Below are positions 9,182 through 45,925 of a stretch of DNA of 64,000 nucleotides, piece after piece (position 1 is the stretch's first letter; each line of letters begins with the position of its first letter). The position numbers and the translations under genes were made by a program. Origin of the DNA: an uncultured delta proteobacterium (GTDB lineage: Bacteria > Myxococcota_A > Polyangia > Polyangiales > Polyangiaceae); assembly GCA_963763745.1 (NCBI GenBank), contig CAVXQJ010000016.1, forward strand, positions 513,029 through 577,028, read 5' to 3'. The notes below the pieces were generated by a model. The model had not been told where the DNA came from. It saw only the letters and a program-made list of their open reading frames with translations, and did no database searches.

Positions 9182-10195
9182 ATGGAACTCGCGACGTGCA
9201 CGACGCTCGGGCTCGGTGGCGAGGCGCGAAGGCTCATCGAGGCGCGCGACGAGCGCACATTGATCGACACGGTGCGCGAGTGTGACGCGCGCGGCGAGCC
9301 GGTGTTCGTTCTCGGCGGTGGAAGCAACGTCGTCTTCGCCGACGAAGGATTCGATGGAACGATCGTGCGCGTCGCGACGCGCGGCATCGTGATCGGCGAC
9401 GGAGTGATCGACGTCGCGGCGGGCGAGCCGTGGGACGATCTCGTTTCGTGGATGGTGACGAGTGGCCTCGCGGGCACGGAGTGCATGTCGGGCATTCCCG
9501 GTCTCGTCGGCGCGACGCCGATGCAGAACGTCGGCGCGTACGGACAAGAAGTGAAGGACACGCTCCGCGAAGTGCGCGTGTGGGATCGTCAGAGCGCGCG
9601 CATGATGGCGCTCTCGCGCGAAGCATGCCGACTCTCGTATCGCCACAGCATGCTCAAGGAGACCGCGTCGCGATGGATCGTCTTGCGCGTCGCTTTCTCC
9701 GCGTCGAAATCATTGCAGAGTGCACCCATTCGGTATGCCGAGCTCGCGCGAGCTCTCGGCGTGAAGGAAGGCGACACGGCGCCGCTCGCGCGCGTTCGCG
9801 AAACCGTGATCGCGCTGCGAAGAGCGAAGGGCATGGTCCTCGATCCGAACGACGCGGACACGAAGAGCGCGGGTTCGTTCTTCGTGAACCCGACGATGGA
9901 CGAAGCGGCGTACGAAGCGCTCTCCGCGCGCGCGAACGAAAAGGTGCCGCGGTTTCAAGACGGCGATCGCGTGAAGGTGCCGGCAGCGTGGCTCATCGAG
10001 CGCGCGGGGTTTGCGAAGGGGACGGCGCGCGGGGCTGCGGCGATTTCGACGAAGCATGCGCTCGCGATCACCAATCGTGGCGGGGCGACGACGAAGGAAG
10101 TGATGGAGCTCGCACGCGCGGTGAGGGATGGGGTGGAGGGGAAATTTGGCGTGCGGCTCGAGGTGGAGCCGGTTTTGGTGGGGTGTTCGATTTGA
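9182..10195 (+). CDS. murB: UDP-N-acetylenolpyruvoylglucosamine reductase
   Basis: FAD-binding N-terminus (FVLGGGSNVVF) and MurB C-terminal domain; start chosen at MELATCTTLG. Confidence 0.9.
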   Translation: MELATCTTLGLGGEARRLIEARDERTLIDTVRECDARGEPVFVLGGGSNVVFADEGFDGTIVRVATRGIVIGDGVIDVAAGEPWDDLVSWMVTSGLAGTECMSGIPGLVGATPMQNVGAYGQEVKDTLREVRVWDRQSARMMALSREACRLSYRHSMLKETASRWIVLRVAFSASKSLQSAPIRYAELARALGVKEGDTAPLARVRETVIALRRAKGMVLDPNDADTKSAGSFFVNPTMDEAAYEALSARANEKVPRFQDGDRVKVPAAWLIERAGFAKGTARGAAAISTKHALAITNRGGATTKEVMELARAVRDGVEGKFGVRLEVEPVLVGCSI

Positions 10196-10204
10196 CGGGG
10201 GAGA

Positions 10205-10370
10205 AGAGGGGCACCCCTCCGCCGTGCTCGCCGTCGTCCTCGCTCGTGCTCGCCGGCAATGCGTGCAATATACATGTTTCGGCTGCGCGCGAGCTTGCGG
10301 GCGACGGCTGCGCGCGGCGGGTCCCCTCAGGCGTTCGCTTCGCGAACGCGAGGGGACGGGGTCTTCAATG
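10205..10370. repeat. MITE-like palindromic repeat family 1, partial copy A (approximate)
   Basis: Shares the family-1 modules ctcgtgctcg, tgcaatatacatgtttcg, gctgcgcgcgagcttgcgggcga and cccctc..gcgttcgc-t/g-aagcgaacgc..gagggg with copies at 18.8 and 25.5 kb. Confidence 0.6.
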
Positions 10371-10403
10371 GGTCGCTCGCGGTGATGGGCTGCGAAACGG
10401 TAC

Positions 10404-10526
10404 GGGCTGTCGTGTGATTGCACGCCAAACGCGAAAGATTCCTGCCAGCGCCGAGTGAGCAGCGAGTCGTGATTGCGCTGTCATGAATCTTTCGCTGGGG
10501 ATTGGCATGCAATCACACGACAGCCC
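10404..10526. repeat. Palindromic hairpin element family 2, copy 1; overlaps start of DUF559 gene (approximate)
   Basis: Arms gggctgtcgtgtgattg...gcgaaagattcctgccagcgc and gcgctgtcatgaatctttcgc...caatcacacgacagccc are reverse complements; second copy at 11.2 kb. Confidence 0.65.
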
Positions 10527-10863
10527 TTCTCAGTTCTTTCTCATCCAACGTGCGCGCGAGATGCGGCGTGAGCCGACTCGGAGCGAAGCTTTGCTCTGGG
10601 CGCAGATTCGCGGGCGCAAGCTCGGCGCTCGCTTTCGCCGGCAGGCTCCGCTCGATCGCTACATCGTCGATTTCTACGCGCCGTGCCACCGGCTCGTCGT
10701 CGAAGTCGATGGCGCAATTCACGATTCGCGAATCGAAGCCGATGCGATTCGCCAACGCGAAATCCAAGCGCTCTTCGGCGTTCGCTTCATTCGCATTCGC
10801 GCAGAGCTCGTCGAGCGCGACGTGCGCGCCGCCGTCCAGCTCGTTCGCGCCGCGCTCATATGA
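10483..10863 (+). CDS. DUF559 (Vsr-like endonuclease fold) domain protein, paralog 1
   Basis: RSEALLW...FRRQAPLDRYIVDFYAP...VVEVDGAIH matches the DUF559 signature; N-terminal 17 codons lie in the family-2 hairpin. Confidence 0.7.
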   Translation: MNLSLGIGMQSHDSPSQFFLIQRAREMRREPTRSEALLWAQIRGRKLGARFRRQAPLDRYIVDFYAPCHRLVVEVDGAIHDSRIEADAIRQREIQALFGVRFIRIRAELVERDVRAAVQLVRAALI

Positions 10864-11242
10864 GCGCCGCGCAGATGATGTCGAGTGCGGCTTGGATGTC
10901 GCGCTCGACGAGGTCGGACGAGATTCGGAGAACGCGGACGCCGTAGAGACGAGCAAGCTCAGCGTCGCGCCGCGCATCGCGCTCGCGTTGCTCCGCGTGA
11001 ATGCCACCGTCGACTTCGATGACGAGCTTGTAAGAAGCAACGAAGAAGTCCGCGATGAACGGATGAAGCGGATGCTGCCGCCGAACGCGAACGCCGAGCT
11101 GTTTGCCGCAAACGCGGCGCCAAAGCAGCGCCTCGCTTCGTGTCGGAGCTTTGCGCATCTCGCGAGCGCGTTGCGTGATTGAGAAGAGCGAAGGGCTGTC
11201 GTGTGATTGGTCGTGCATGCCAACTACGAGCGAAAGATTCAT
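10856..11242 (-). CDS. DUF559 domain protein, paralog 2 (convergent, 3' ends overlap by 8 nt)
   Basis: MNLSLVVGMHDQSHDSPS...RSEALLW...RRQHPLHPFIADFFVASYKLVIEVDGGIH; N-terminus is nucleotide-identical to the paralog over about 50 bp, the rest diverged at DNA level but conserved as protein. Confidence 0.7.
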   Translation of the reverse strand: MNLSLVVGMHDQSHDSPSLFSITQRAREMRKAPTRSEALLWRRVCGKQLGVRVRRQHPLHPFIADFFVASYKLVIEVDGGIHAEQRERDARRDAELARLYGVRVLRISSDLVERDIQAALDIICAALI

Positions 11243-11327
11243 GACAGCGCACTCACGCCTCGCTGCTCACTCTGCGCTGGCAGGAATCTTTCGCGTTCGG
11301 CGTGCACGACCAATCACACGACAGCCC
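11193..11327. repeat. Palindromic hairpin element family 2, copy 2 (inverted relative to copy 1; approximate)
   Basis: gggctgtcgtgtgattgg...cgaaagattcatgacagcgc / gcgctggcaggaatctttcgc...caatcacacgacagccc. Confidence 0.65.
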
Positions 11328-11385
11328 GAAGTGTTCGCGCCACCAACCTGCGACGAGCCCCCATCCCCGCTACCAACCCACCTCA

Positions 11386-11473
11386 ATTTCGGCGAAGCCG
11401 AAATATGAGGGGGCGCCAACACGCGCAGGCTCGAAACTTCCGCCTCACGCGTCTCGTGCGTGAAGTTTCGAGC
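11386..11473 (-). terminator. Two tandem hairpins at the 3' end of the radical-SAM operon (approximate)
   Basis: atttcggc-gaa-gccgaaat palindrome and gctcgaaacttc...gaagtttcgagc 12-bp stem with 21-nt loop spanning the rSAM stop codon at 11445. Confidence 0.3.
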
Positions 11474-12593
11474 CGAGCATGTTGGCGGGGGGAGAGAGAA
11501 GCAGAAGCAACAAACCGCACAACGCGCGGACACTCCGGATCCCCCCATCCCCCGCACCCAAAAACCGCGAAACCGCCTTGCACCCGCCACGACACACGTC
11601 GCGCAAGGCACACGCATCACACGGCGCGCTCGTCCCGTGCGCCGCCACTTCACCCGGCTCCAAAAAACTGCACGGCGCGCTTCGCCCATCGGAGCGCACC
11701 GCGGACAGCGCCGCGCCCGCTTCGCAACCGAAGACGCCGAGCGCGCGCAAGTCGGCCGCGCGATCGTAGAGCGCGTCGGAGAGGAGCGCGACCATCGCGC
11801 AGTCGATGCGGAGGCGAAAACCCGATGCGTGCATTCTGCACACGATGTGCTCGATCGCCTCTCCCAGCGACGCGACTTGTTCGCGCGTGAGACGCTTCGC
11901 GAGGTAGTCGAGCTTCGCAGCGCGGCCAGCCGGTTTGTATCGGAGGAGCTGCGCTTCGCGCGCGCCGAGATCGCGAGCGCGCGCGATCGTGTCGCCCAGC
12001 GCGGGGAAGCTCTGGCGCGTGAGGACGACGTTGACGCCGAACGGGACGTTCGCTTCGTGGAGGAGTCGCATCGCGCGCTCGGCGACGCGCGCGCCGGGGA
12101 ACGCGCGGACGGAGCGATACACTTCGTCCTCGCCGTCGTAGCTCACGTTGACTTGCGCGAACGCGCCGAGCGCGCGTGCCTTGTCGCGCGTCATGCCGAC
12201 GCCGCTCGTCGTGACGACGGGGATGAGGCTGTGTGCGCGCGCTCTCTTTGCGAGCTCGCCGAGGTCGTCGCGAAGGAGCGGCTCGCCGCCGCCGAACGCA
12301 ACCGTGAAGACGCCGCTCTGCGCGAGCGCTTCGAGCGTACGTTCGAGCGCGTCGCGTTCGACGTGCGCGCCATCGGGGCGCGCATCGAGATAACAACCTT
12401 CGCATCCGACGTGACACTGCGACGTGACCGCGACGTGCGCCTCGAGCGGCGCGCTCTTCGTGATCGCGATGTCGCGCCACGCATCGCCGCCGTCGATTCC
12501 AATCTTGCGCGCACCTTCGCGATCGAGCGCGACGAGCGCCGCGGGCTCATCGACCCGCACCCATGCCCCCCAACTCTCGATGCGCGTCCTCAC
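11445..12593 (-). CDS. Radical SAM enzyme with C-terminal SPASM domain (peptide-modifying maturase-like)
   Basis: CHVGCEGC (CxxxCxxC) radical-SAM cluster motif and C-terminal CDACALRDVCRGGC (Cx2Cx5Cx3C) SPASM motif. Start set at GTG 12593 because it overlaps the upstream peptide stop as GTGA; the long 645-aa ORF upstream of this point is Arg-rich off-frame junk overlapping two real genes. Confidence 0.75.
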   Translation of the reverse strand: MRTRIESWGAWVRVDEPAALVALDREGARKIGIDGGDAWRDIAITKSAPLEAHVAVTSQCHVGCEGCYLDARPDGAHVERDALERTLEALAQSGVFTVAFGGGEPLLRDDLGELAKRARAHSLIPVVTTSGVGMTRDKARALGAFAQVNVSYDGEDEVYRSVRAFPGARVAERAMRLLHEANVPFGVNVVLTRQSFPALGDTIARARDLGAREAQLLRYKPAGRAAKLDYLAKRLTREQVASLGEAIEHIVCRMHASGFRLRIDCAMVALLSDALYDRAADLRALGVFGCEAGAALSAVRSDGRSAPCSFLEPGEVAAHGTSAPCDACALRDVCRGGCKAVSRFLGAGDGGIRSVRALCGLLLLLLSPPANMLGSKLHARDA

Positions 12594-12829
12594 GACTCCG
12601 TCTCCGTCCCCGACTCCGACGCCGTCCCCGTCTCCGTTCCCGACCCCGACTCCGACTCCGTCTCCGCCTTCGCCGCGACGATCGCCGCGCACGCCGCGGC
12701 CACGATCGCACCCGCCGCGATCTGCGCGATGAACAGCGTGTCGATCACGCTCCCGATGCTCGAACAGTTCGCGCCGTGCCCTTCGCGCACGACGACGACG
12801 TGGTCTTCGAGCTCTTTCGGGTCGCTCAT
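12590..12829 (-). CDS. 79-aa small protein: hydrophobic helix plus C-terminal (E/G/A)(T/S) dipeptide-repeat tail; candidate substrate/precursor of the adjacent radical-SAM enzyme
   Basis: MSDPKELEDHVVVVREGHGANCSSIGSVIDTLFIAQIAAGAIVAAACAAIVAAKAETESESGSGTETGTASESGTETES; ATG overlaps the upstream gene stop (ATGA) and its stop overlaps the rSAM GTG (GTGA); about 90% G/C at codon third positions in this frame. Confidence 0.55.
   Translation of the reverse strand: MSDPKELEDHVVVVREGHGANCSSIGSVIDTLFIAQIAAGAIVAAACAAIVAAKAETESESGSGTETGTASESGTETES
12596..12675. repeat. Imperfect hexanucleotide microsatellite (GACTCC/GTCTCC/GTCCCC)n of about 13 units (approximate)
   Basis: Read on minus strand it encodes the ET/ES/GT tail of the small peptide; the -1 frame gives GD/GV repeats; a related (GGGGAC/GGAGAC)n tract encodes the (GD)n C-terminus of HflX at about 27393-27445. 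Confidence 0.6.
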
Positions 12830-13803
12830 AGGCCGAAGCTCTCGAGGTATCGGACGTCGATGCCATAGAGGACGATGAACGCGGCAGACGCAACGGCGGC
12901 GACGGAGACGATCGCGCGACCGACGCGCGCGGCGCGGGTGTGCGCGCCCGCGAGACCCCATGCGCGTGCGACGAGGATGATGGGGAACATCGCGGCGGGG
13001 AGCGCCAAGAATGGCGTCGCGTGCCCGCGCTCGTACGCCGTCGCGAGGACCGCGGCGAATGTTGCAAGATACACGCAAATGAGGGCGGCTTTTGGCGCGA
13101 ATCGGAGCATCGATCGCGCGCTCGCGCCGCGGAGCTTTCGAGCGCTCGCGGCGATGCCGAGCACGCCAAAGACGACGAGCACCCCGATCGACGCGCGAAA
13201 CACGAAGCGACGACGCGTCCACCGCGCGACGCGAGCGACGAGATCGGGCGCGCTCTTGCCCGCGCGGGCGGCGGCGTGCTTCGCGGCGGTCGCGTCGCCG
13301 CGTTCCGTCGCGAGGTCGACGAGGCGCGACGCGGCTTGCGCGCGGAGCGGCACGTCGCTCTTCGGCTCGTCGAGGAGCGCATCGAGCTCGCGCTCCGCGT
13401 CGGCGGGTCGCGCGAGCTTCGACGCGTAGCTCTCGGCGACGAACATGCGCGCCTCGGTACGCACTTCGCCCGGCGGGAACGCTTCGAGATCGCGCGCGAG
13501 CCCGTCGACGAGCGCGGCGTTCGCTTGCGCGTTCGGATCGCGGCGTGCGCGTTCGAGCTTCACGAGCGGCGCGAAGTCGCCTTCGGATCGATCATGCAGC
13601 CAGCGCGCGCGCGCCGAGGAGCGGAGCGCCCAGCGATTCGACGGATCCGTTTGGATCGATGCTTCGTAGTGCGCGAGCGCGCTCGCGAAATCGAGATCGC
13701 GCTCTTCTTGCTCGGCCGCCGCGTAGAGACGCTCCGCCTCGGCGCGTGATGACGAGTCGCTCGATGCGACGGCGATGGCGCCAAAGAGAATGAGCGCGGT
13801 CAC
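12826..13803 (-). CDS. Membrane protein with N-terminal signal peptide, periplasmic TPR-like region and C-terminal multi-TM domain
   Basis: MTALILFGAIAVASS signal; helical TPR-like segment (ALAHYEASIQTDPSNRWAL...); 4 predicted TM helices at C-terminus; first gene of the coupled three-gene unit. Confidence 0.6.
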   Translation of the reverse strand: MTALILFGAIAVASSDSSSRAEAERLYAAAEQEERDLDFASALAHYEASIQTDPSNRWALRSSARARWLHDRSEGDFAPLVKLERARRDPNAQANAALVDGLARDLEAFPPGEVRTEARMFVAESYASKLARPADAERELDALLDEPKSDVPLRAQAASRLVDLATERGDATAAKHAAARAGKSAPDLVARVARWTRRRFVFRASIGVLVVFGVLGIAASARKLRGASARSMLRFAPKAALICVYLATFAAVLATAYERGHATPFLALPAAMFPIILVARAWGLAGAHTRAARVGRAIVSVAAVASAAFIVLYGIDVRYLESFGL

Positions 13804-15682: not shown

Positions 15683-16300
15683 TCAAGCCGAGGAGCTGAT
15701 CAGCGCAGCGCGGATGGTGCGCGCGAGGAGCTCCGTCGCAGCCGAAGGCGACAGCTGCATCGCGTAACGCATCGTGTCCCACGTGCGACCGTGCGAGAGG
15801 AGATCGAGCGTATCGAGGAGCTCGCGGCGCGACTCGCTCGCGTCGAGCTCTTCGGCGAACACTTGCTCCACCTCGCGACGACGGCGCTGCCACGCTTCGT
15901 CCGTCGCGCGTCCGATCGCGGTCGAACCGGTCTTTGGCGTCGCACCGACGACGGATGCCGCGCGCCGCACCGGCGAGCAAAACTCGAGCTCGCGCCCGCG
16001 CGCTTCGGCGAACGCATTCACGCGTTGATCGAGCGTGAGTCGCGCGTCGACGTACGCCTTCATCGGCCCGACGCGCCGCGCGTGCTCCTCGACCGCCGCG
16101 ACGAACAAGTCCTCGCGCGAAGGAAAATGCTGACGAATCGATCGCACGGCGACGCTCGCGCGCTTCGCGATCTGACCTGCCGTCGGCGCGAGGTTCCCTT
16201 CCTCGATCAAGTCGATGAGCGACGCGACGATCGCCTTGTGCGTACGCGCGGACCGCTCGCGCCGGCCGTCCCGTCTCTCGAGCGCTCGCTGCGGAAGCAT
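15683..16300 (-). CDS. TetR/AcrR-family transcriptional regulator
   Basis: N-terminal HTH (AGQIAKRASVAVRSIRQHFPSREDLF) typical of TetR family; about 200 aa. Confidence 0.8.
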   Translation of the reverse strand: MLPQRALERRDGRRERSARTHKAIVASLIDLIEEGNLAPTAGQIAKRASVAVRSIRQHFPSREDLFVAAVEEHARRVGPMKAYVDARLTLDQRVNAFAEARGRELEFCSPVRRAASVVGATPKTGSTAIGRATDEAWQRRRREVEQVFAEELDASESRRELLDTLDLLSHGRTWDTMRYAMQLSPSAATELLARTIRAALISSSA

Positions 16301-16796: not shown

Positions 16797-17555
16797 TCAA
16801 CGCAGTTGAAATGCCCCGATCACGTCGGCGCGCTTCACGGGTCCGCCGTGGCCCAAGTAGAAGGTCTGAACGCCGAGATCGAGGAGCGCCTGGATGTTCT
16901 TTCGGTTCTGCGCGGGGTCGGCTTGATAGAGGTGCTCGCCGGGCGAGTGTGGAAAGAAGAGCCCGCCGAGCGCACCGCCCGCGATCATGTCGCCGACGAA
17001 CGCGGTGTGATCGGCGAGCAAGATGACGATCGATCCGGGCGTGTGGCCCGGCATCTCGATCACTTTTCCGGCGATGCCCCACGGCGCGAGATCGATCGCG
17101 TCGTTCGGACGCACGATGATGTCCGGCACGAGCTCGGGGTATTCGGTCGTGAGAAATGGCTTGAGCACGGCGCCCGTGAAGCCAGTCGGTTTGAGATCGT
17201 CGTCGTGACCTGCCGCGGCGAGCGAAAAATCGCCGAGGCCGAGCATGACCTTCGCTCCGGCGAGCCTTTGGATGTCGGCTGCGAGACCGGCGTGATCGGC
17301 GTGGCCGTGCGTCACGACGACGAGCCCGACCGAGCTCCTCGCGACGCCGCGCTCGGCGAGCGCCGCCGCGAGATCGTCCATGTCGCCGAGAGTCCCCGAA
17401 TCGACGAGCACGGGATGCCGCGTGCGAATCATGAACACGTTCGAGAGACGCAGCGGGATTTGGACGATCTCCGCGGACCCACCACTGGTGAGGGGCGCCT
17501 TCCCGACGACGGTGGGTCCGGCGCAAGCGAAGAGGAGAGGGAACAGGAAGATCAA
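16797..17555 (-). CDS. Metallo-beta-lactamase-fold hydrolase (likely exported); start uncertain
   Basis: VTHGHADHAG HxHxDH motif; trimmed from ORF 16797..18539; only in-frame ATG is at 17432 (MIRTRHP) but a conserved beta-strand plus LLFACAG lipobox precede it; possible TTG start at 17555 lies inside repeat family 3 copy 2. Confidence 0.55.
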   Translation of the reverse strand: MIFLFPLLFACAGPTVVGKAPLTSGGSAEIVQIPLRLSNVFMIRTRHPVLVDSGTLGDMDDLAAALAERGVARSSVGLVVVTHGHADHAGLAADIQRLAGAKVMLGLGDFSLAAAGHDDDLKPTGFTGAVLKPFLTTEYPELVPDIIVRPNDAIDLAPWGIAGKVIEMPGHTPGSIVILLADHTAFVGDMIAGGALGGLFFPHSPGEHLYQADPAQNRKNIQALLDLGVQTFYLGHGGPVKRADVIGAFQLR

Positions 17556-17640
17556 AAGATCAGAAGGAGAGAAGTGGGGTTTCGAACCACAAATTCTTCC
17601 TGATCTTCTGATCTTCCTGTTCACTCTTCTTCCTAGCGTA
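17540..17640. repeat. Repeat family 3 copy 2: AT-richer hairpin element (approximate)
   Basis: gaacaggaagatcaaaagatcagaagga ... ccacaaattcttcctgatcttctgatcttcctgttc; related to copies at 8.1 kb and 45.8 kb. Confidence 0.6.
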
Positions 17641-17642
17641 CG

Positions 17643-18101: not shown

Positions 18102-18809
18102 ATGTTCTCGCTTCCCGGCCGACTGCGCGCGACGACGCTCGGCGATTTGCTCGGCGTGCTTCACCGCGCGGGCGCGAGCGGAACCCTCGAGCTCACCGAA
18201 GATCGCGGGCGCACGCACCGCGTCCACATCACGTCGGGGCTCGTCACGTCCGTCGAGCTCGATGGCGCGAGCCCGCCGCTCACCGATCTCCTGAAGACCG
18301 CCGGTGCGCTCGACGACATGACGATTCGTCGCGCGGTGCTCCGCGCTCTCACCTCGCAGCGCCTCGTCGGCGAAGTGCTCGCGTCCGACTTCCACGTGTC
18401 GCCCAACGTGATCGACGTCGCGCTGCGCGACCAGCTCGTCTTGCGGCTGCGCGCGCTCGAGTCGATCGAAGACGCGCGCGTCGGCTTTCGTGCGTGCGTG
18501 CGTCCGCCGCGCGAAGCTCTGCGCGATCGTCCGCTCCAAGCGAGCGAGTTTCTACGCGGCCGCCGCCGCGCGCGCGATCGCGACGCGAAGACGCAAACCC
18601 CAACCCCCGCTCCATCGCGCGACTCGAGCGCGTACACGCTGCTCGGCGTGGAGCGCGACGCGGACGCTGCGGAGATCCGCCGCGCGTTTCGGCGTCTCGC
18701 GCGGGAGCTGCATCCTGATCGACATCCGGAGGCGAGCGAGGGTGAGCGACGCGCGCTTGCGTTGAAGTTCGCGCAAGTCGCGGCGGCGTATCAGGCGCTC
18801 GTCGCCTGA
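18102..18809 (+). CDS. DUF4388-domain protein with C-terminal DnaJ (J) domain
   Basis: N-terminal TTLGDLLGVL...GTLEL (DUF4388-like) and C-terminal YTLLGVERDADAAEIRRAFRRLARELHPDRHP with HPD motif. Confidence 0.7.
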   Translation: MFSLPGRLRATTLGDLLGVLHRAGASGTLELTEDRGRTHRVHITSGLVTSVELDGASPPLTDLLKTAGALDDMTIRRAVLRALTSQRLVGEVLASDFHVSPNVIDVALRDQLVLRLRALESIEDARVGFRACVRPPREALRDRPLQASEFLRGRRRARDRDAKTQTPTPAPSRDSSAYTLLGVERDADAAEIRRAFRRLARELHPDRHPEASEGERRALALKFAQVAAAYQALVA

Positions 18810-19136
18810 ATTTCTCCCCCCGCTCGTGCTCGGGCTCGTCCTCGGTCATGCTCGGCGGCCGATGCATGCATTGTACATGTTTCCGCCTGCGCGTGACCTT
18901 GCGGGCGAGCCCTGCGCGCGAGCGTCCCCCTCTCGGTGTCGGCCCAAAGCGGCCGCCACCGAGGTGGGAAGTGTCTTCACTTTCTCATTGAAGACCATTC
19001 CCCCTCGCGTTCGCGAAGCGAACGCATGAGGGGGACGCTCGCGCGCAGGGCTCGCCCGCAAGCCGCGGTGAGGATGTGTCGTGGCTCTGGACCGCGGCGA
19101 GGACGAGCCCGAGCACGAGCGGGGGGAGAACTTCTC
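18809..19136. repeat. MITE-like palindromic repeat family 1, full-length copy B (about 328 bp, nested inverted repeats; approximate)
   Basis: Terminal inverted repeats atttctccccccgctcgtgctcgggctcgtcctcg / cgaggacgagcccgagcacgagcggggggagaa; inner IR cttgcgggcgagccctgcgcgcgagcgtccccctc / gagggggacgctcgcgcgcagggctcgcccgcaag; central gcgttcgcgaagcgaacgc palindrome. Confidence 0.7.
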
Positions 19137-19141
19137 GAACC

Positions 19142-20002
19142 TCAATGCAACGCGTTCAACTGCAACAGCTGCAACTTCGCTTCCGGCGTGAAATGCGAAT
19201 CCGGAAAACGATGGATGAGCGTGCGCCACGTGTTCTTCGCTTCGTTCCACGCTTCGATGTCCATCTGACTCAGCGCGAGCATGCGGAGCGCATCGTCCTG
19301 GATCTCTCGATCTTGTGACGCGTCCGAGAGCTGCGTGAGGATCGGGAGCGCGTCGCGCGCGCGCCCGAGGTGGCGGTACGCGTCGGCGAGCCCGAGGCGC
19401 ACGTTCGGCGCGATCGACGAGCTGTCTTTGCATTTCAACGAGTCCTCGTACGCGCTCGCCGCTTCTTGCCAGCGCTGCACGCGCGCCTTGTCGAGCCCTT
19501 GCTCGTAGCTCGCCGCGGCGAGCTCGTTCTTCGCGCGTTCCACCGCGTCCGCGAACGCGGCTTGCTCGGCCTTCGTGATCGGCTCCTTCTTGATCGCTTC
19601 GTAGCCGTCGACGATCTCGATGCGCTTGCCTTGACGAATGAGCTCGTAGAACAGCACGGCCTTCTGCTCCGCGCGCGCGCGCTCTTCGTCGCGCTTCTCG
19701 GTCTCGCGCGCTTCCTTGCGGAGGCGCTCGTTGTCGGAGGTCTTCGTGTCGGTCTCCGCGCGGATCGCATCGACGCGCGCGTCCCATGCGAACTTCAACG
19801 CGACGAACACGACGAGCACGAACACGATGTACGCCGTCGCGCTGTTCCACGAGAGCCGCCGCTCGTAGCCGCCTTGCCGCTTCGCGATCGACTTGATGTC
19901 CGCGGAGAGCGCATTCGTCAGGTTGTTCGTCTTGATGACGAGCCCGCGCGACTCGATGATCTCGCGCTTGATGTCGCGCAGCTCGTCGTCGACTTCGTGC
20001 AT
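19142..20002 (-). CDS. Membrane protein with N-terminal coiled coil, one TM helix and C-terminal TPR-like domain
   Basis: Trimmed from ORF 19142..20074 to MHEVDDELRDIKREI; TM segment TAYIVFVLVVFVALKFAW; Lys/Glu-rich coiled coil; AT-richer codon usage than neighbours. Confidence 0.5.
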   Translation of the reverse strand: MHEVDDELRDIKREIIESRGLVIKTNNLTNALSADIKSIAKRQGGYERRLSWNSATAYIVFVLVVFVALKFAWDARVDAIRAETDTKTSDNERLRKEARETEKRDEERARAEQKAVLFYELIRQGKRIEIVDGYEAIKKEPITKAEQAAFADAVERAKNELAAASYEQGLDKARVQRWQEAASAYEDSLKCKDSSSIAPNVRLGLADAYRHLGRARDALPILTQLSDASQDREIQDDALRMLALSQMDIEAWNEAKNTWRTLIHRFPDSHFTPEAKLQLLQLNALH

Positions 20003-23019: not shown

Positions 23020-24134
23020 ATGTCGAATTTGAAGTCCGGGCCCCACGAGTTCGTGGAGGACGGGAACACGTCCGTCGTCGTGACGGTCGACGAGCAAGCC
23101 GAGATGGTGATGTTTCCGTGCGGGCCGCTCACCGTGAACGGATAACTCGGGCCGTCCTTGCGCGGGAGCACGGTGTTCACGTTCGTCATGTAGACGCCGA
23201 TCACGTAAGCCGTGTTCGCTTGCACGGTGTACGAGATGTTCGATCGATAGAACTGCTCGGTGCTGGCGCCAGTCACGTTCGAGCCGAGCGCGAGCTGCGT
23301 TTGGCTCGTGTTCCAGATCTCCGCGTGGATCGAATCGCTCGAGGCGAGGTTCGCCTTCCATTCGACGCCGCTGATCGTCTGCGATTGCGCGAACGTCACC
23401 GTGTAGGCGCGCACGCTCCACACGCTCGAGCTTCCTGGATCGTAGAGCGTGCCCGTCGGCGGGAAGATCTCGACTGCTGTCTCCGTGACGGTGCACGTCG
23501 AGTTCGCGCATATCCCGTTGCACACGACGCCGCATCCGCCGCAGTTCGCGGTGTCCGTCGTCGTGTTCGCGCAGTACGGCGAGCCCGCGTCGGGCTCGCA
23601 GAGCGTCTGACCTTGCGGGCACGTCGAGCCGCATTTCCCGGCGTCGCACGCCGTGAGCTGTCCGCATATGACGCCGCACGCGCCGCAGTTCGAGTTGTCG
23701 CTCGACGTGTTCGCGCAGTACGGACCTGCGTCGCCGCCGTCGGGCGCGCAGATCGACGTGGGCTGCGCGCATTGGAGCGCGCATTTTCCCGCGACGCATT
23801 TCTGATTCGTCGTGCACTTGGTTCCGCACGCGCCGCAGTTCGTGTCGTCGGTCTGCGTGTCGACGCAAGTCGAGCCGCAAATCTTCGTGTTGTTCGAGCA
23901 CGTCGTGCCGCACTTGCTCGCGCTGCACACTTGGCCGGACGGACACGCGTTGCCGCACGCGCCGCAGTTCGCGTTGTCGTTCGAGACGTTCACGCAGGAC
24001 GATCCGCAGAGCGTCCCGCCGCCGTCGCACTGCGAGCTCCCGCCGTCGTCGCCGGCGATGAGCCCACCCGTGGCGCACGCCATCACGGTCGCGAGGGCGG
24101 TGATCAAACCAATGACGATGCGTCGTCGTGTCAT
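23013..24134 (-). CDS. Lipoprotein with six Cys-rich NCGACG repeats (myxobacterial disulfide-repeat type) and a C-terminal beta-rich domain
   Basis: Lipobox ALATVMAC; repeats ...NCGACGxxCxxGQxCxxGxC...; paralogous architecture at 36774..37607. Confidence 0.65.
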   Translation of the reverse strand: MTRRRIVIGLITALATVMACATGGLIAGDDGGSSQCDGGGTLCGSSCVNVSNDNANCGACGNACPSGQVCSASKCGTTCSNNTKICGSTCVDTQTDDTNCGACGTKCTTNQKCVAGKCALQCAQPTSICAPDGGDAGPYCANTSSDNSNCGACGVICGQLTACDAGKCGSTCPQGQTLCEPDAGSPYCANTTTDTANCGGCGVVCNGICANSTCTVTETAVEIFPPTGTLYDPGSSSVWSVRAYTVTFAQSQTISGVEWKANLASSDSIHAEIWNTSQTQLALGSNVTGASTEQFYRSNISYTVQANTAYVIGVYMTNVNTVLPRKDGPSYPFTVSGPHGNITISACSSTVTTTDVFPSSTNSWGPDFKFDIQ

Positions 24135-25450: not shown

Positions 25451-25470
25451 GGTGGCGAGATATATCAGAG

Positions 25471-25695
25471 GTTTCTCCTCCGCTCGTGCTCGGGCAGGGG
25501 TCTCCCCCCGCTCGTGCTCGGGCTCGTCCTCGTCAGCGGCGGACGATGCGAGCAGCGTGAATGTTCCGCCTGCGCGTGACCTCGCGCGCAGCCCGGCGCG
25601 CGCAGAGCCGCGCGGAGGCGAAACATGTATATTGCACGCATTGTCGCCGAGCACGGCCGAGCATGCCGGCGAGCACGAGCGGGGGAGAAATCTCG
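25471..25695. repeat. MITE-like palindromic repeat family 1, copy C (approximate)
   Basis: Left arm ctccgctcgtgctcggg (duplicated) ...gcctgcgcgtgacc; right arm cgaaacatgtatattgcacgcattg...ggcgagcacgagcgggggagaaatctc; lies between divergent ligase and hflX starts. Confidence 0.65.
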
Positions 25696-27520
25696 CCTAT
25701 ACTCCGCCCCCTTGGAAATCTACGGCAACACATCCGGCCTCTCGCCGTCCGCGAAGAAGACGCTCGAGCGCATCTATCGCCGGCGCGTGCCCATCGACAC
25801 GCTCGTCACGCCCGAGCTCCAGCGTTCGCTCGTCGATGCGTCGATCGAGACGGGCCGACAAGTCGGCGTGCTCGTGCATCGCTCCGGGCAAGTCGATTAC
25901 GTGATCGCGGGCGACGCGGGGAAGCTCGAGCTTCCGAACGTCGGACGCTTGCGCGCCGCGGAGGGACGCCTTCGCGGTCTTCGATTGATCCACACGCACG
26001 TGCGCGGCGAGCCGCTCACGCAAGACGATCTCATCGACCTCGTGCGGCTTCGGCTCGATCTCGTGTGCGCGATTCAGCTCGCGCCGACGGGCGAGGTGCG
26101 CGCGCTCTCGTATGCGCACAACGTTCCGGGGCAGCCGCCGTATCGCGTCATCGGACCGCTCCTTCCGGGCCGCGCGGATCTCGACGTCGGCAGGCTCGTC
26201 TCGGATCTCGAAGCCGAGTTCGGCAAGCTCGCAAAGGGCCGCGCCGTCCGCGCGAAGGACGGCCGCGCGATCTTGATCTTCGTGAACGAGAAGCGAGACA
26301 GAGATGGCTGGCACACGCAGGTCAAGATGCACGAGCTCCGCGAGCTCGCGCGCACGGCGGGCGTCGAGGTCGTCGATTCGATCGTTCAGGCGCGCGAGAA
26401 GGTCGATCCAAAAACCATCATGGGGCAGGGCAAGCTCGACGACGTCATCTTGCGCGCCGCCGAGCTCGACGCCGACGTCCTCATCTTCGACCGCAACCTG
26501 AGCCCGTCGCAGTCGAGCGCGATCGGCAAGACGAGCGAGCTCAAGATCATCGATCGCAGCCAGCTCATCTTGGACATCTTCGCGCAGCGCGCCGAGAGCA
26601 AAGACGGCAAGCTCCAAGTCGAGCTCGCGCAGCTGAAATATTCGATGCCGCGCCTCGGGCAAAAAGACGACTCGCTCTCTCGCCTCACGGGCGGCATCGG
26701 CGGACGCGGGCCGGGCGAAACGAAGCTCGAGATCGGACGACGCCGCGCGAAGGAGCGCGTCGCGCACCTCGAAGCGCAGCTGAAGAAGCTCGGCAAGCAA
26801 CGCGAGCAGCGCCGCCGCAAGCGCTCGCGCGAAGGCGTGCCGACGGTCGCCATCGTCGGCTACACGAACGCCGGCAAGAGCACGCTGCTCAACACGTTGA
26901 CGGGCGCCGACGTCCTCGCGGAAGACAAGCTCTTCGCGACGCTCGACACGCGCTCTCGCGTGCTCAAGGTCGGTTGGGCGGGCTACGGCGATCGCGAGGT
27001 CGTCGTGACGGACACGGTCGGTTTCATCCGGGACCTGCCGAAGGATTTGTTCGCTGCGTTCCGCGCGACGTTCGAAGAAGCGGCCGACGCCGATTTGCTC
27101 TTGCACGTCGTCGACGCGAGCGATCCCGCGAAAGACGATCACATCGCGACGACCGCCTCTGTGCTCGAGCAGCTCGATCTCGCGAATGTGCCGCGCGTGC
27201 TCGTGTTCAACAAAATCGATTTGCTGGAACCGCTCGAAGAAAAATCGCTCGCACGCGCGAACCCCGACGCGGTGCTCGTGACCGCGACCAAGCGCGACAC
27301 GCTGCGGCCTCTCATCGAGCGCATCGCGGCGGAGCTCGCGACGCGGTGGGAAGACGCGGCGAAGGTTCCGAGCGGGGCCTCTGTCGGGAGCGGAGTCGGA
27401 GATGGGGACGGGGACGGAGACGGAGACGGGGACGGACGCGGGCACGGCGATGCCGAGGAGCTGACGACGCTCGACGCGATGCTCGAAGCCGCGGGGCGAA
27501 AGCGGCGGCGGAGCTCGTAA
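25625..27520 (+). CDS. hflX: GTPase HflX with about 200-aa N-terminal extension and C-terminal (GD)n tail; start uncertain
   Basis: HflX N-domain (RAILIFVNEK...ELRELARTAGVEV), G-domain GYTNAGKSTLLN / DTVGF / NKID; ORF ATG at 25625 lies within repeat copy C, alternative TTG/GTG starts downstream. Confidence 0.8.
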   Translation: MYIARIVAEHGRACRRARAGEKSRLYSAPLEIYGNTSGLSPSAKKTLERIYRRRVPIDTLVTPELQRSLVDASIETGRQVGVLVHRSGQVDYVIAGDAGKLELPNVGRLRAAEGRLRGLRLIHTHVRGEPLTQDDLIDLVRLRLDLVCAIQLAPTGEVRALSYAHNVPGQPPYRVIGPLLPGRADLDVGRLVSDLEAEFGKLAKGRAVRAKDGRAILIFVNEKRDRDGWHTQVKMHELRELARTAGVEVVDSIVQAREKVDPKTIMGQGKLDDVILRAAELDADVLIFDRNLSPSQSSAIGKTSELKIIDRSQLILDIFAQRAESKDGKLQVELAQLKYSMPRLGQKDDSLSRLTGGIGGRGPGETKLEIGRRRAKERVAHLEAQLKKLGKQREQRRRKRSREGVPTVAIVGYTNAGKSTLLNTLTGADVLAEDKLFATLDTRSRVLKVGWAGYGDREVVVTDTVGFIRDLPKDLFAAFRATFEEAADADLLLHVVDASDPAKDDHIATTASVLEQLDLANVPRVLVFNKIDLLEPLEEKSLARANPDAVLVTATKRDTLRPLIERIAAELATRWEDAAKVPSGASVGSGVGDGDGDGDGDGDGRGHGDAEELTTLDAMLEAAGRKRRRSS

Positions 27521-36773: not shown

Positions 36774-37607
36774 TCATTGCTTCGTGAAGACGAGGGCTCG
36801 GCCGTCCGGCGCATAAAGCGTCACCGTCGTCGGCGTGGCTTGGTATGTCGTGTACGCGAGTGTGCCTGTGAACGGGCAGCTCTGCGTGAGCGTGATCGAT
36901 CCGGCGCTCGCGACGAACGACCCGTTCGCGCGGCCCGTGCTTCCATCGTTCCCCGCGTCGTCGATGTCGTTGTCGACGAGCGCGTACTTGCCCGCGGCGA
37001 CTTCGTTCGTGATGCAGTAGGTCGCGCCCGTGGGTCCGCTGCCGCTGTCTGCGCCCGCGTACGCGTACGCGGCCGTCACGACGTACGTGCCGTCGACGAC
37101 GAAGCCGCCGTCGACCGCCGGCATCGCACTCGCGACGAACACCTCCGCGACGCTCGCGCCGATCTGAACGACCGCGTTGCACGCCGTGGCGGCATCCGTG
37201 TGCGCGTCCTGCGATGCGTCCGGAGCCGCACACGTCCCATCTGTGCACGATGTCGCATGCGGACAGACGACGCCGCACCCTCCGCAGTTGAACGAGTCGG
37301 CTTGCAAGTTCGCGCAGAACGTTGCGCCCGTTGTGCCACATGCCGTCGGGCTGGTGGGCGGACAGTCTTCGCACGTCGAGCTCTGACACAATTGGTTCGG
37401 AGCGCACGCAAGGCCGCATCCACCACAGTTGTCTCGATCGCTCGCCGTGTCGACGCACTGCCCATTGCACAGACCCACGCCCGCGTCGCAGGCGTTATCG
37501 GTGTACTCGACGTCGTACGTTCGGCACGCGCCGAAGATCGCGATCACGACGACGATGACCGAGCGACGCGACACGCTCGCAGCGTAACGCAAACGTGAGG
37601 TTGTCAC
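36774..37607 (-). CDS. Lipoprotein with Cys-rich NCGGCG repeats (paralogous architecture to 23013..24134)
   Basis: Lipobox IAIFGAC; DNCGGCGLACAPNQLC and FNCGGCGVVCPHATSC repeats. Confidence 0.6.
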   Translation of the reverse strand: MTTSRLRYAASVSRRSVIVVVIAIFGACRTYDVEYTDNACDAGVGLCNGQCVDTASDRDNCGGCGLACAPNQLCQSSTCEDCPPTSPTACGTTGATFCANLQADSFNCGGCGVVCPHATSCTDGTCAAPDASQDAHTDAATACNAVVQIGASVAEVFVASAMPAVDGGFVVDGTYVVTAAYAYAGADSGSGPTGATYCITNEVAAGKYALVDNDIDDAGNDGSTGRANGSFVASAGSITLTQSCPFTGTLAYTTYQATPTTVTLYAPDGRALVFTKQ

Positions 37608-45336: not shown

Positions 45337-45750
45337 GTGACTAACAAGCATTTCTCCAAGGCGCTGCGCCGTTCACTCTCACGCGGCGTCACGCTCGTCG
45401 AGATTCTCATCGTGCTCGCGATCGTCGGGCTCATCGCGGGCGGCATTGCCGTCTACGCGGTGCCGAAGTTCCAACAAGCGCAAAAAGACAACACGAAGAA
45501 CTCGCTCAAAGCGCTTCACGCCGTCGCCGAAGCGTGGCGCGCGAATCACGGAAACGATTGCCCGACGGTCCAACGCCTCAAAGAGGAGAAGGAGCTCGCG
45601 GCCTCGAGCGACATCAACGACGCATGGGGCGATCCCTACAAGATCCAATGCGACGACGACGCAACCTCCGTGATCAGCTGGGGCCCGGACAAGAAAGAGG
45701 GCACGCAGGACGACATCAAGTTCCCGGACAACACACCGGCCAAGCAGTGA
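45337..45750 (+). CDS. gspG: Type II secretion major pseudopilin GspG
   Basis: GTG start giving 17-aa leader MTNKHFSKALRRSLSRG|VTLVEILIVLAIVGLIAG; C-terminal DAWGDPYKIQCDD...ISWGPDKKEGTQDDIKF GspG signature; 138 aa. Confidence 0.75.
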   Translation: MTNKHFSKALRRSLSRGVTLVEILIVLAIVGLIAGGIAVYAVPKFQQAQKDNTKNSLKALHAVAEAWRANHGNDCPTVQRLKEEKELAASSDINDAWGDPYKIQCDDDATSVISWGPDKKEGTQDDIKFPDNTPAKQ

Positions 45751-45751
45751 A

Positions 45752-45925
45752 GAGAGGCTTTGGGCTTTGGGCCTTGGGCTTTAGGAAGAAAGATGAACAG
45801 GAAGATCAAAAGATCAGGAAGAAGAGTTGGGGGGGAATCCTCACTCCATTCTTCTGATCTTCCCGATCTTCCTGTTTTCACTTTCTTTCGCCTAAAGCCC
45901 AAGGCCCAAAGCCCAAAGCCTCGCG
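45752..45925. repeat. Repeat family 3 copy 3: about 175-bp compound hairpin with perfect 32-bp outer inverted repeat, immediately downstream of gspG (approximate)
   Basis: Outer IR gaggctttgggctttgggccttgggctttagg / cctaaagcccaaggcccaaagcccaaagcctc; inner stem gaacaggaagatcaaaagatcaggaagaag / cttctgatcttcccgatcttcctgtt. Confidence 0.65.

Follow-up and report, generated by a model that had tools for sequence, protein, structure and literature searches.

Small structured repeats such as repetitive extragenic palindromic (REP) sequences and REP doublets forming hairpins (REPINs), bacterial interspersed mosaic elements (BIMEs) and miniature inverted-repeat transposable elements (MITEs) are well studied in Proteobacteria. 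[quoted passage not shown] The BIMEs of Escherichia coli are mosaics of palindromic units and other modules, arranged in alternating orientation between convergent genes or at operon ends. The ends of IS200/IS605 insertion sequences (IS) and their palindrome-associated derivatives have subterminal hairpins with conserved unpaired bases, are asymmetric, and are inserted without duplication next to a short specific sequence; in IS608, the last hairpin lies about 10-13 nt from the element end. Integron attC sites fold as imperfect palindromes in which extrahelical or internal-loop bases are conserved and the loop varies, and they stand directly past a stop codon in fixed orientation. Bacterial MITEs (Correia/NEMIS, ERIC, RUP) measure about 100-400 bp, can form pairs with terminal inverted repeats (TIRs) and long stem-loops, insert beside genes or co-transcribed regions and can create extensions of open reading frames (ORFs) (PMC3184786). 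In this work, we analyzed a stretch of 64,000 nucleotides (hereafter, the window) from an uncultured delta proteobacterium of the Polyangiaceae (GenBank assembly GCA_963763745.1, contig CAVXQJ010000016.1, positions 513,029 to 577,028), which contains a family of non-coding, folded repeat units in which many of these traits recur, the spacing between last hairpin and end included.

We read this family as lineage-restricted, non-autonomous DNA units, mobile or recently mobile, of a REPIN/BIME-like kind, which occur in Polyangiales-like myxobacteria and would be recognised as a folded strand. We consider this reading about evenly balanced between right and wrong, and we favor it because of empty insertion sites in relatives, the junction sequences, covariation within the stems, invariant loop bases and a mosaic arrangement. 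Text searches of the literature found no MITE or REP repeat family described for Myxococcota or myxobacteria, and the family is apparently undescribed, although of a known general kind.

A previous sequence-only reading had proposed a MITE-like palindromic family with three copies in the window, at about 10.2, 18.8 and 25.5 kb. The repeats are real at these places (nhmmer E-values of 1e-19 to 1e-36; profile and covariance-model E-values of 1e-10 to 1e-34), and all the motifs quoted for the three copies were found in them. The 25-mer ccgctcgtgctcgggctcgtcctcg is present exactly at 18820-18844 and 25508-25532, as its reverse complement at 19098-19122 and in a diverged form at 10220-10243; tgcaatatacatgtttc is shared by the 10.2-kb and 25.6-kb copies (as the reverse complement in the latter), with tgcattgtacatgtttcc in its place at 18.8 kb; and the gcgttcgcgaagcgaacgc hairpin at 19003-19021 is found inverted at 10330-10348. 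The middle copy contains two nested inverted repeats, 18808-18844 / 19098-19134 (37 nt, 97%) and 18898-18932 / 19028-19062 (35 nt, 100%). A repeat search of the window gave between-copy matches of 78-85 nt, local BLAST gave exact 32-33-nt matches among the sequences at 18.8, 19.1 and 25.5 kb, and the inner-arm 22-mer had two matches against 0.01 expected.

The description of the copies, in contrast, had to be revised. Aligning the half-elements with units from other organisms showed that the repeating entity is a non-coding unit of 125-170 nt composed of three parts: a head hairpin (CCCNCCTC, a variable stem, a GAAG-type loop and GAGGGGG); a long imperfect hairpin of ~100 nt, whose 5' arm CGCTCGCGCGCAGGGCTCG... 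pairs with the 3' arm ...CGAGCCCGAGCACGAGCG; and an unpaired tail GGGGGGAGAAATC. Internal loops and bulges of the long hairpin hold the bases C, GCA / A, GA and A, and its terminal loop varies freely, some units having an AT-rich box CATGTATATTGCA there and others a GC-rich hairpin. Unit ends read GA(G/A)ATTTCTCC..., and six-frame translations of the units yield only low-complexity Arg/Ala-rich strings. The covariance model R1, built from six units and used to scan the window and its relatives, detected five full units plus fragments in the window (Table 1) where three copies had been counted; all of them fall within 15.5 kb of the 64 kb, and nhmmer found no further copies in the whole window. 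The 10.2-kb copy, formerly taken for partial, is the complete unit c1, which has an overlooked diverged partner, c1b. The 328-bp element regarded as the complete form is a head-to-head pair, and the palindrome described as central belongs to its right-hand unit, whose head hairpin it forms, and is not the centre of the element. Its halves, c2L and c2R, have arms that are 100% identical but differ in head hairpin and loop module, and modules reassort between loci, as c1 combines a c2R-type head with a c2L-type loop. The TGAAGAC flank of the hairpin joining the two c2 heads also adjoins the head of c1, whose tail region is complex, an inverted tail fragment GGGGGAGAAG coming first at 10197-10206. 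All three loci of the window are head-to-head pairs with their tails outward, an arrangement that produces the appearance of a 330-bp MITE with 33-37-nt TIRs; at c3, the left 'terminal inverted repeat' consists of the c3L fragments.

Table 1. Units, pairs and fragments of the repeat family in the window, and tails of units from other genomes. The tail distance is measured from the TGA of the gene reading into the tail to TTTCTCC or its degenerate equivalent; a dot marks features without an assigned strand.
Feature	Position	Strand	TGA-tail distance (nt)	R1 score (bits; E-value)	Description
Unit c1	10189-10360	-	18	144.7; 3e-30	complete; nhmmer E 7e-31; tail toward murB stop (TGA 10193-10195); a tail fragment intervenes and its own TTTCTCC motif is degenerate
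Unit c1b	11373-11497	+		54.7; 3e-10	strongly diverged head-to-head partner of c1; DNA fold z = -8.6
Pair c2, whole 336-nt insert	18808-19143	.			between convergent J-domain gene (stop TGA 18807-18809) and TPR gene (stop 19142-19144)
Unit c2L	18809-18972	-	1	159.6; 1e-33	AT-rich loop module tgcattgtacatg
Small hairpin GTCTTCA...TGAAGAC	18973-18995	.			connects the two c2 heads
Unit c2R	18995-19133	+	11	144.1; 4e-30	c1-type head hairpin; GC-rich loop module; DNA fold z = -5.4
c3, whole 227-nt insert	25468-25694	.			ends GAGGTTTCTCC...GGAGAAATCTC; inside divergent ligase/hflX spacer
c3L fragments	25472-25495, 25499-25532	-		35 bits for 25497-25644	two tandem tail-plus-arm pieces facing ligase start (ATG 25450)
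Unit c3R	25539-25692	+		85.2; 5e-17	complete; tail toward hflX (TTG 25712)
Unit L080			0		TetR-like gene
Unit L134			2
Unit L126			3
Unit L122			7

The fold of the unit is strongly conserved. RNAalifold, run on a MAFFT alignment of six units, predicted a two-hairpin fold in which 94% of the cells pair and both sides have changed in 18 of the 39 pairs, a number reached by none of 500 shuffles and compared with 1-5 pairs in slid controls. In an eight-unit alignment (A3) fitted to the covariance model, 96.4% of the cells are paired and both sides have changed in 29/39 pairs (0/500 shuffles; slid controls 4-9), a compensatory pattern like that of REPINs, in which the spacer varies yet stays complementary (PMC3337134). 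All eight units have the same unpaired C, GCA, A, GA and A in the long hairpin and the same G-run in the tail; this holds even for the very diverged c1b, which folds into the same two hairpins with many compensatory changes. Four units folded separately as DNA gave the same two-hairpin fold, the same internal-loop geometry and the unpaired tail (z = -8.6, -5.4, -5.3 and -2.3), and the c2 pair folded as DNA reaches -157 kcal/mol (z = -18). Covarying stems with invariant loop bases suggest a specific protein partner that recognises the folded strand. The pair cells of the eight units comprise 285 Watson-Crick, 6 G·T, 4 A·C and 7 other combinations; G·T is thus as rare as A·C, without strand asymmetry, which, within these small counts, gives no indication that one RNA strand is under selection.

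Syntenic contigs from related organisms, reached through homologues of the J-domain protein and of the ligase, showed that the units are inserted DNA. The c2 site is empty in three of them, L121, L139 and L140, where the stops of the J-domain and TPR genes overlap as gcTTAGtg; the J-domain protein of L121 is 97% identical to that of the window (DNA about 88-90%) and those of L139 and L140 are 80% identical. L139 comes from the same metagenome-assembled genome (MAG) as a unit-bearing contig, L080, so a genome with the family has an empty c2 site. The window has 336 nt between the T and the A of the ancestral TTAG, with the junctions gcc T/GAATTTCTCC ... GAACCTC/A atgc (slashes mark junctions). 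Comparison of the empty site, gcT T/AG tgc, with the filled one, gcC T/[GA...TC]/A Atgc, reveals zero duplicated bases, and target duplications of TA, TTA or TTAG are ruled out by the junction sequences. The T plus the GA of the element forms a TGA stop on each strand, so that both overlapping stops are rebuilt and the C-termini of the two proteins (...LVA and ...NALH) are unchanged. At the 10.2-kb locus, the murB and radical-SAM genes, which abut or overlap in L118, L119 and L120, are 1.25 kb apart in the window, the spacer being made up of c1 and c1b with a DUF559 cassette placed between their heads. At c3, the divergent hflX and ligase starts are 34-36 nt apart in L138, and the window keeps flanks of ~17 + 17 nt around the 227-nt insert, with no direct repeat evident around c3 on comparison with relatives. 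Relatives have two conserved -10-like boxes, TATACT before hflX and GATATA before the ligase; both fall outside c3, which occupies the position expected for the -35 regions of both genes. The earlier suggestion that the 25.5-kb copy may supply promoter or operator sequence gains no support from a consensus scan of 10-26 kb, in which sigma-70-like sites numbered zero. No units were found in about 120 kb of related DNA; a covariance-model match at 5392-5542 of L119 (25.7 bits) was discarded as weak and lying within a plausible coding region.

The earlier proposal that the copies are intergenic holds for all of them, and so does its claim of a spurious ORF extension: the in-frame string ...DEDEPEHERGE...LATMPD lies upstream of the ligase ATG (25450), and the database protein of 439 aa begins at that ATG.

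Several changes in gene content were observed. The region 3' of the J-domain gene is a hot spot of such change among relatives (window 18809; L118 10787-13179; L119 10807-15888; L136 10741-11738): where the window has the c2 pair, L121 and L139 have nothing, L136 has an Xre-like/RES toxin-antitoxin pair, and L118, L119 and L135 carry an IgGFc-binding-domain gene along with other genes. At ~15690-15720, the window lacks two additional genes, of about 180 and 567 aa and without a Pfam domain, that are present at 5280-7584 of L118 and 5254-7629 of L119. A DUF2341-type gene stands between the ligase and hflX genes in L118 (19500-20525) and in L137 (3-299), the closest relative (sample SRR18214521), and is missing in the window (25451-25711) and in L138. 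The DUF559 cassette (10403-11328), placed between the c1 and c1b heads and absent in L118-L120, contains two convergent DUF559 genes (Vsr-like endonuclease fold) at 10543-10863 (+) and 10856-11182 (-) (Pfam E-values of 1e-24 and 2e-25), each preceded by a palindromic unit of ~123 nt bounded by GGGCTGTCGTGTGATTG / CAATCACACGACAGCCC; these two palindromic units repeat each other in inverted orientation (93 nt, 91%). The radical-SAM ORF (11445-13382) shifts frame with respect to its relatives at 11541-11553 (minus strand, G-run), with the conserved C-terminal DPECPRVV motif in the neighbouring frame; whether this is a real frameshift or a homopolymer assembly error, the ORF enters c1b in either frame.

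Outside the window, a search of metagenomes with the tail pattern returned 13 loci, four of them real and each a single unit: L122 (identical to L124), L126 and L134 (at a contig end). L122, L126 and L134 are soil-metagenome contigs of the Joint Genome Institute. One further single unit, L080, belongs to the Polyangiales MAG GCA_038239005.1 (one unit in 20 kb of that MAG); next to its head, at 1497-1560, a direct repeat GATCTGATC(C/G)(C/A)AGCCAAATTCCCTGCGATC occurs twice. The genome scan with the 20-mer CCGCTCGTGCTCGGGCTCGT hit at least 117 loci, and L080 was the only true relative among the matches listed; nearly all the others are chance matches, as the motif reads as Leu-Val-Leu-Gly-Leu-Val coding sequence in high-GC genomes. 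In scans of viral contigs neither the arm nor the tail had a match, and a protein-profile search with open-frame translations (FSPRSCSGS...LRASPARERPP) gave one weak match (E 0.09) and no protein family. The units from other genomes are single and without TIRs, yet intact, and they fold well.

Regarding their position, seven of the nine tails lie 0-18 nt past the TGA of a gene reading into the tail, five of these at 0-7 nt, and the stop-proximal tails include all four units from other genomes (Table 1). The stop codon of c2L, L080 and L126 is formed by a T plus the terminal GA of the unit, giving a T/GA junction; the junctions of c3, c2R and L122 are different. The tail of c1b is placed where the radical-SAM gene ends in relatives, 5-6 codons past the PRVV motif, and the ORF of the window runs into the unit. 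Heads of single units are ~180-330 nt from the nearest called gene (L126, L080), and only c3 faces gene starts. The proximity of tails to stops is suggestive of a target preference or of selection, nine tails not being proof of either.

Taken together, these observations fit a model in which a trans-acting enzyme would recognise the folded single strand, as RAYT and IS200/IS605 transposases recognise REP or end hairpins, and would insert the unit tail first, next to a T and without target duplication. Insertion would often take place within a stop codon or a few bases past it, where the terminal GA may restore a TGA. The single-strand intermediate, the type of enzyme and the preference for T/GA targets are what we infer; the effects on neighbouring genes, namely new stop codons, long hairpins in 3' untranslated regions (UTRs) and displaced -35 regions at ligase/hflX, look incidental. 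It is tempting to go further and to regard the units as a new kind of folded-single-strand integration substrate, directed to stop codons by an HUH or tyrosine enzyme and inserting after a T so that its GA rebuilds TGA, an extension that we consider doubtful at best.

Several points weigh against the REPIN/BIME-like mobile reading. The c2 locus is the only insertion site reconstructed to the base, and its reconstruction assumes two synonymous substitutions beside the junctions at 88-90% DNA identity. A scan of about 38 window ORFs brought up no transposase, recombinase, integrase or HUH gene. In addition, fitting the eight-unit alignment to the covariance model inflated its pair counts toward the structure, covariation in a palindrome cannot tell DNA from RNA, and the G·T and A·C counts compared above are small. 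Selection acting where the intergenic space is very short could account for the tail-stop association, which comes from nine tails, and the family is rare in the collections searched. Besides, the defining features of REPs are missing: units of 125-170 nt contrast with REPs of 20-40 nt and REPINs of roughly 90-110 nt, a size matched only by the long hairpin (~100 nt) taken alone, and there is no GTAG head, so the units are not REPs in the strict sense. They further differ from REPs in the extra head hairpin, the G-rich unpaired tail, an apparently low copy number and their occurrence in Myxococcota, without a RAYT (Y1/HUH) gene among the same ORFs. With the BIMEs they have no sequence relationship, their modules are much longer, and no IHF (integration host factor) or gyrase-binding motifs were identified. 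The likeness to IS200/IS605 ends extends to single units, which lack TIRs and duplications and have subterminal hairpins; a fixed 4-5-nt target, however, is not established from nine junctions, among which only T/GA-like ones were seen, and no TnpA or TnpB gene turned up.

Among other explanations, a classical MITE would take the head-to-head pair (about 230-340 bp, with TIRs of 33-37 nt) as the mobile entity, moved by a DDE transposase encoded elsewhere, with single units as its decayed halves. The pairs do have TIRs (37 nt at 97% in c2; GAGGTTTCTCC / GGAGAAATCTC in c3), c2 and c3 vary between presence and absence as entire blocks, three of three window loci are pairs, and small, non-coding elements with a long stem-loop fold and no transposase gene (here units of 125-170 nt and pairs of 227-336 nt) have the features of MITEs (PMC3184786). 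In contrast, the reconstructed c2 site is free of target duplication, c3 shows no evident one, and four loci in other genomes are intact single units without TIRs; in L080, L122, L126 and c1, head and tail share only a C-run / G-run. The differing head hairpins and loop modules of the c2 halves speak against this explanation, and the covariation within units and the invariant loop bases are unexpected for simple transposase-binding ends. The window contains neither a cognate transposase or IS nor a larger element with the same ends from which such a MITE could derive. Non-coding palindromic DNA has been inserted at intergenic sites that are empty in relatives, as the MITE-like label implied, but the elements resemble MITEs in appearance only and are not strict MITEs, given the missing target duplication and the single units without TIRs, and we judge the classical MITE explanation rather unlikely. 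Another proposal would make the units attC-like sites that a tyrosine recombinase uses in folded form: their geometry resembles that of attC sites, with a conserved internal loop between two short helices and a variable terminal structure beyond them, and so do the fixed orientation and the closeness to an upstream stop codon. The RYYYAAC / GTTRRRY core sites are nonetheless absent, the ends reading GA...TC; there is no integrase and no co-oriented cassette array in the window, and the flanking genes are syntenic housekeeping genes and not cassettes, which makes this explanation very improbable.

Explanations at the RNA level were also weighed, since the sequence-only reading had named conserved structured non-coding RNA genes as the finding that would overturn it. 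The structure is indeed strongly conserved; however, absence at orthologous loci, the presence of both orientations and the lack of a G·U excess fit mobile DNA rather than an RNA gene. A cis-acting 3' UTR element, acting as an mRNA-stabilising or termination hairpin or as a stop-proximal modulator of translation termination and retained by selection at gene ends, would account for the seven of nine tails near a converging TGA, for the very stable hairpins and for the strong covariation, and REPs of E. coli located within about 15 nt of a stop codon reportedly stall ribosomes (Liang, Rudd and Deutscher 2015, Mol Cell). Close relatives nevertheless have the same genes without the element, with stops that even overlap, and c3 faces two gene starts. 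A terminator scan found no hairpin-plus-T-run site within the elements, G·U pairs are no commoner than A·C, both strands would need to function in pairs, and such a role would explain why units are retained but not how they spread; we consider it unlikely. Independently transcribed small-RNA genes, driven by the AT-rich loop box (TATATT, TACAAT or TATAGT), could be proposed on account of the -10-like hexamer found in the long-hairpin loop of c1, c2L, c3R and L122 and, weaker, of L126. This box is missing from c2R, c1b and L080 (3/8), no -35 box or terminator accompanies it, and the scan of 10-26 kb gave no consensus sigma-70-like promoter. Rfam produced no match at gathering score in the 64 kb and, at E <= 1 in 10-26 kb, none within the elements and only hairpin noise at 17.5 kb; moreover, the units are not syntenic in relatives. 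We give this explanation scarcely any credence.

The window itself is chromosomal DNA of 65% G+C with ordinary housekeeping genes, among them HrpB helicase, murB, efp, hflX, urocanase, a type II secretion cluster and one tRNA-Arg; two of its proteins have homologues that carry the labels Polyangiaceae, Myxococcales or Labilithrix. It also contains a second, unrelated hairpin repeat family (AACAGGAAGATCAAAAGATCAG...) at 17527-17642 and 45750-45925 (RNA folds of -57 and -120 kcal/mol), the 45.8-kb copy being additionally wrapped in inverted GGGCTTTGGGCC repeats. The 17.5-kb copy is inserted in a divergent spacer of ~40 nt that is empty in L118, L119, L135 and L139; a right-arm fragment of this family is present in L136, and Rfam gave only miRNA-precursor noise. 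Cys-rich repeats with a period of about 140-150 nt (repeat family D3) were found in two ORFs matching the Stig1 Pfam domain (23520-24002 and 37263-37463), and Gly/Asp-rich GGNGAC-type repeats at 12.6, 21.3 and 27.4 kb.

In practical terms, the units cause false ORF extensions, as at the N-terminus of the ligase and the C-terminus of the radical-SAM protein, and they mark sites of gene-content change between closely related genomes. For the study of small structured repeats, the family provides a clean insertion polymorphism together with a defined fold that has invariant unpaired bases. Its most unusual feature, along with the possible proximity of tails to stops, is the base-exact case of an insert within two overlapping stop codons that restores both. 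If the units were indeed a stop-codon-directed substrate of the new kind considered above, such DNA could colonise genomes with almost no intergenic DNA, even at overlapping convergent stops, without damage to genes. Should the tail-stop association hold genome-wide, the family would offer a tractable case for studying how selfish DNA locates safe places to insert where genes are densely packed.

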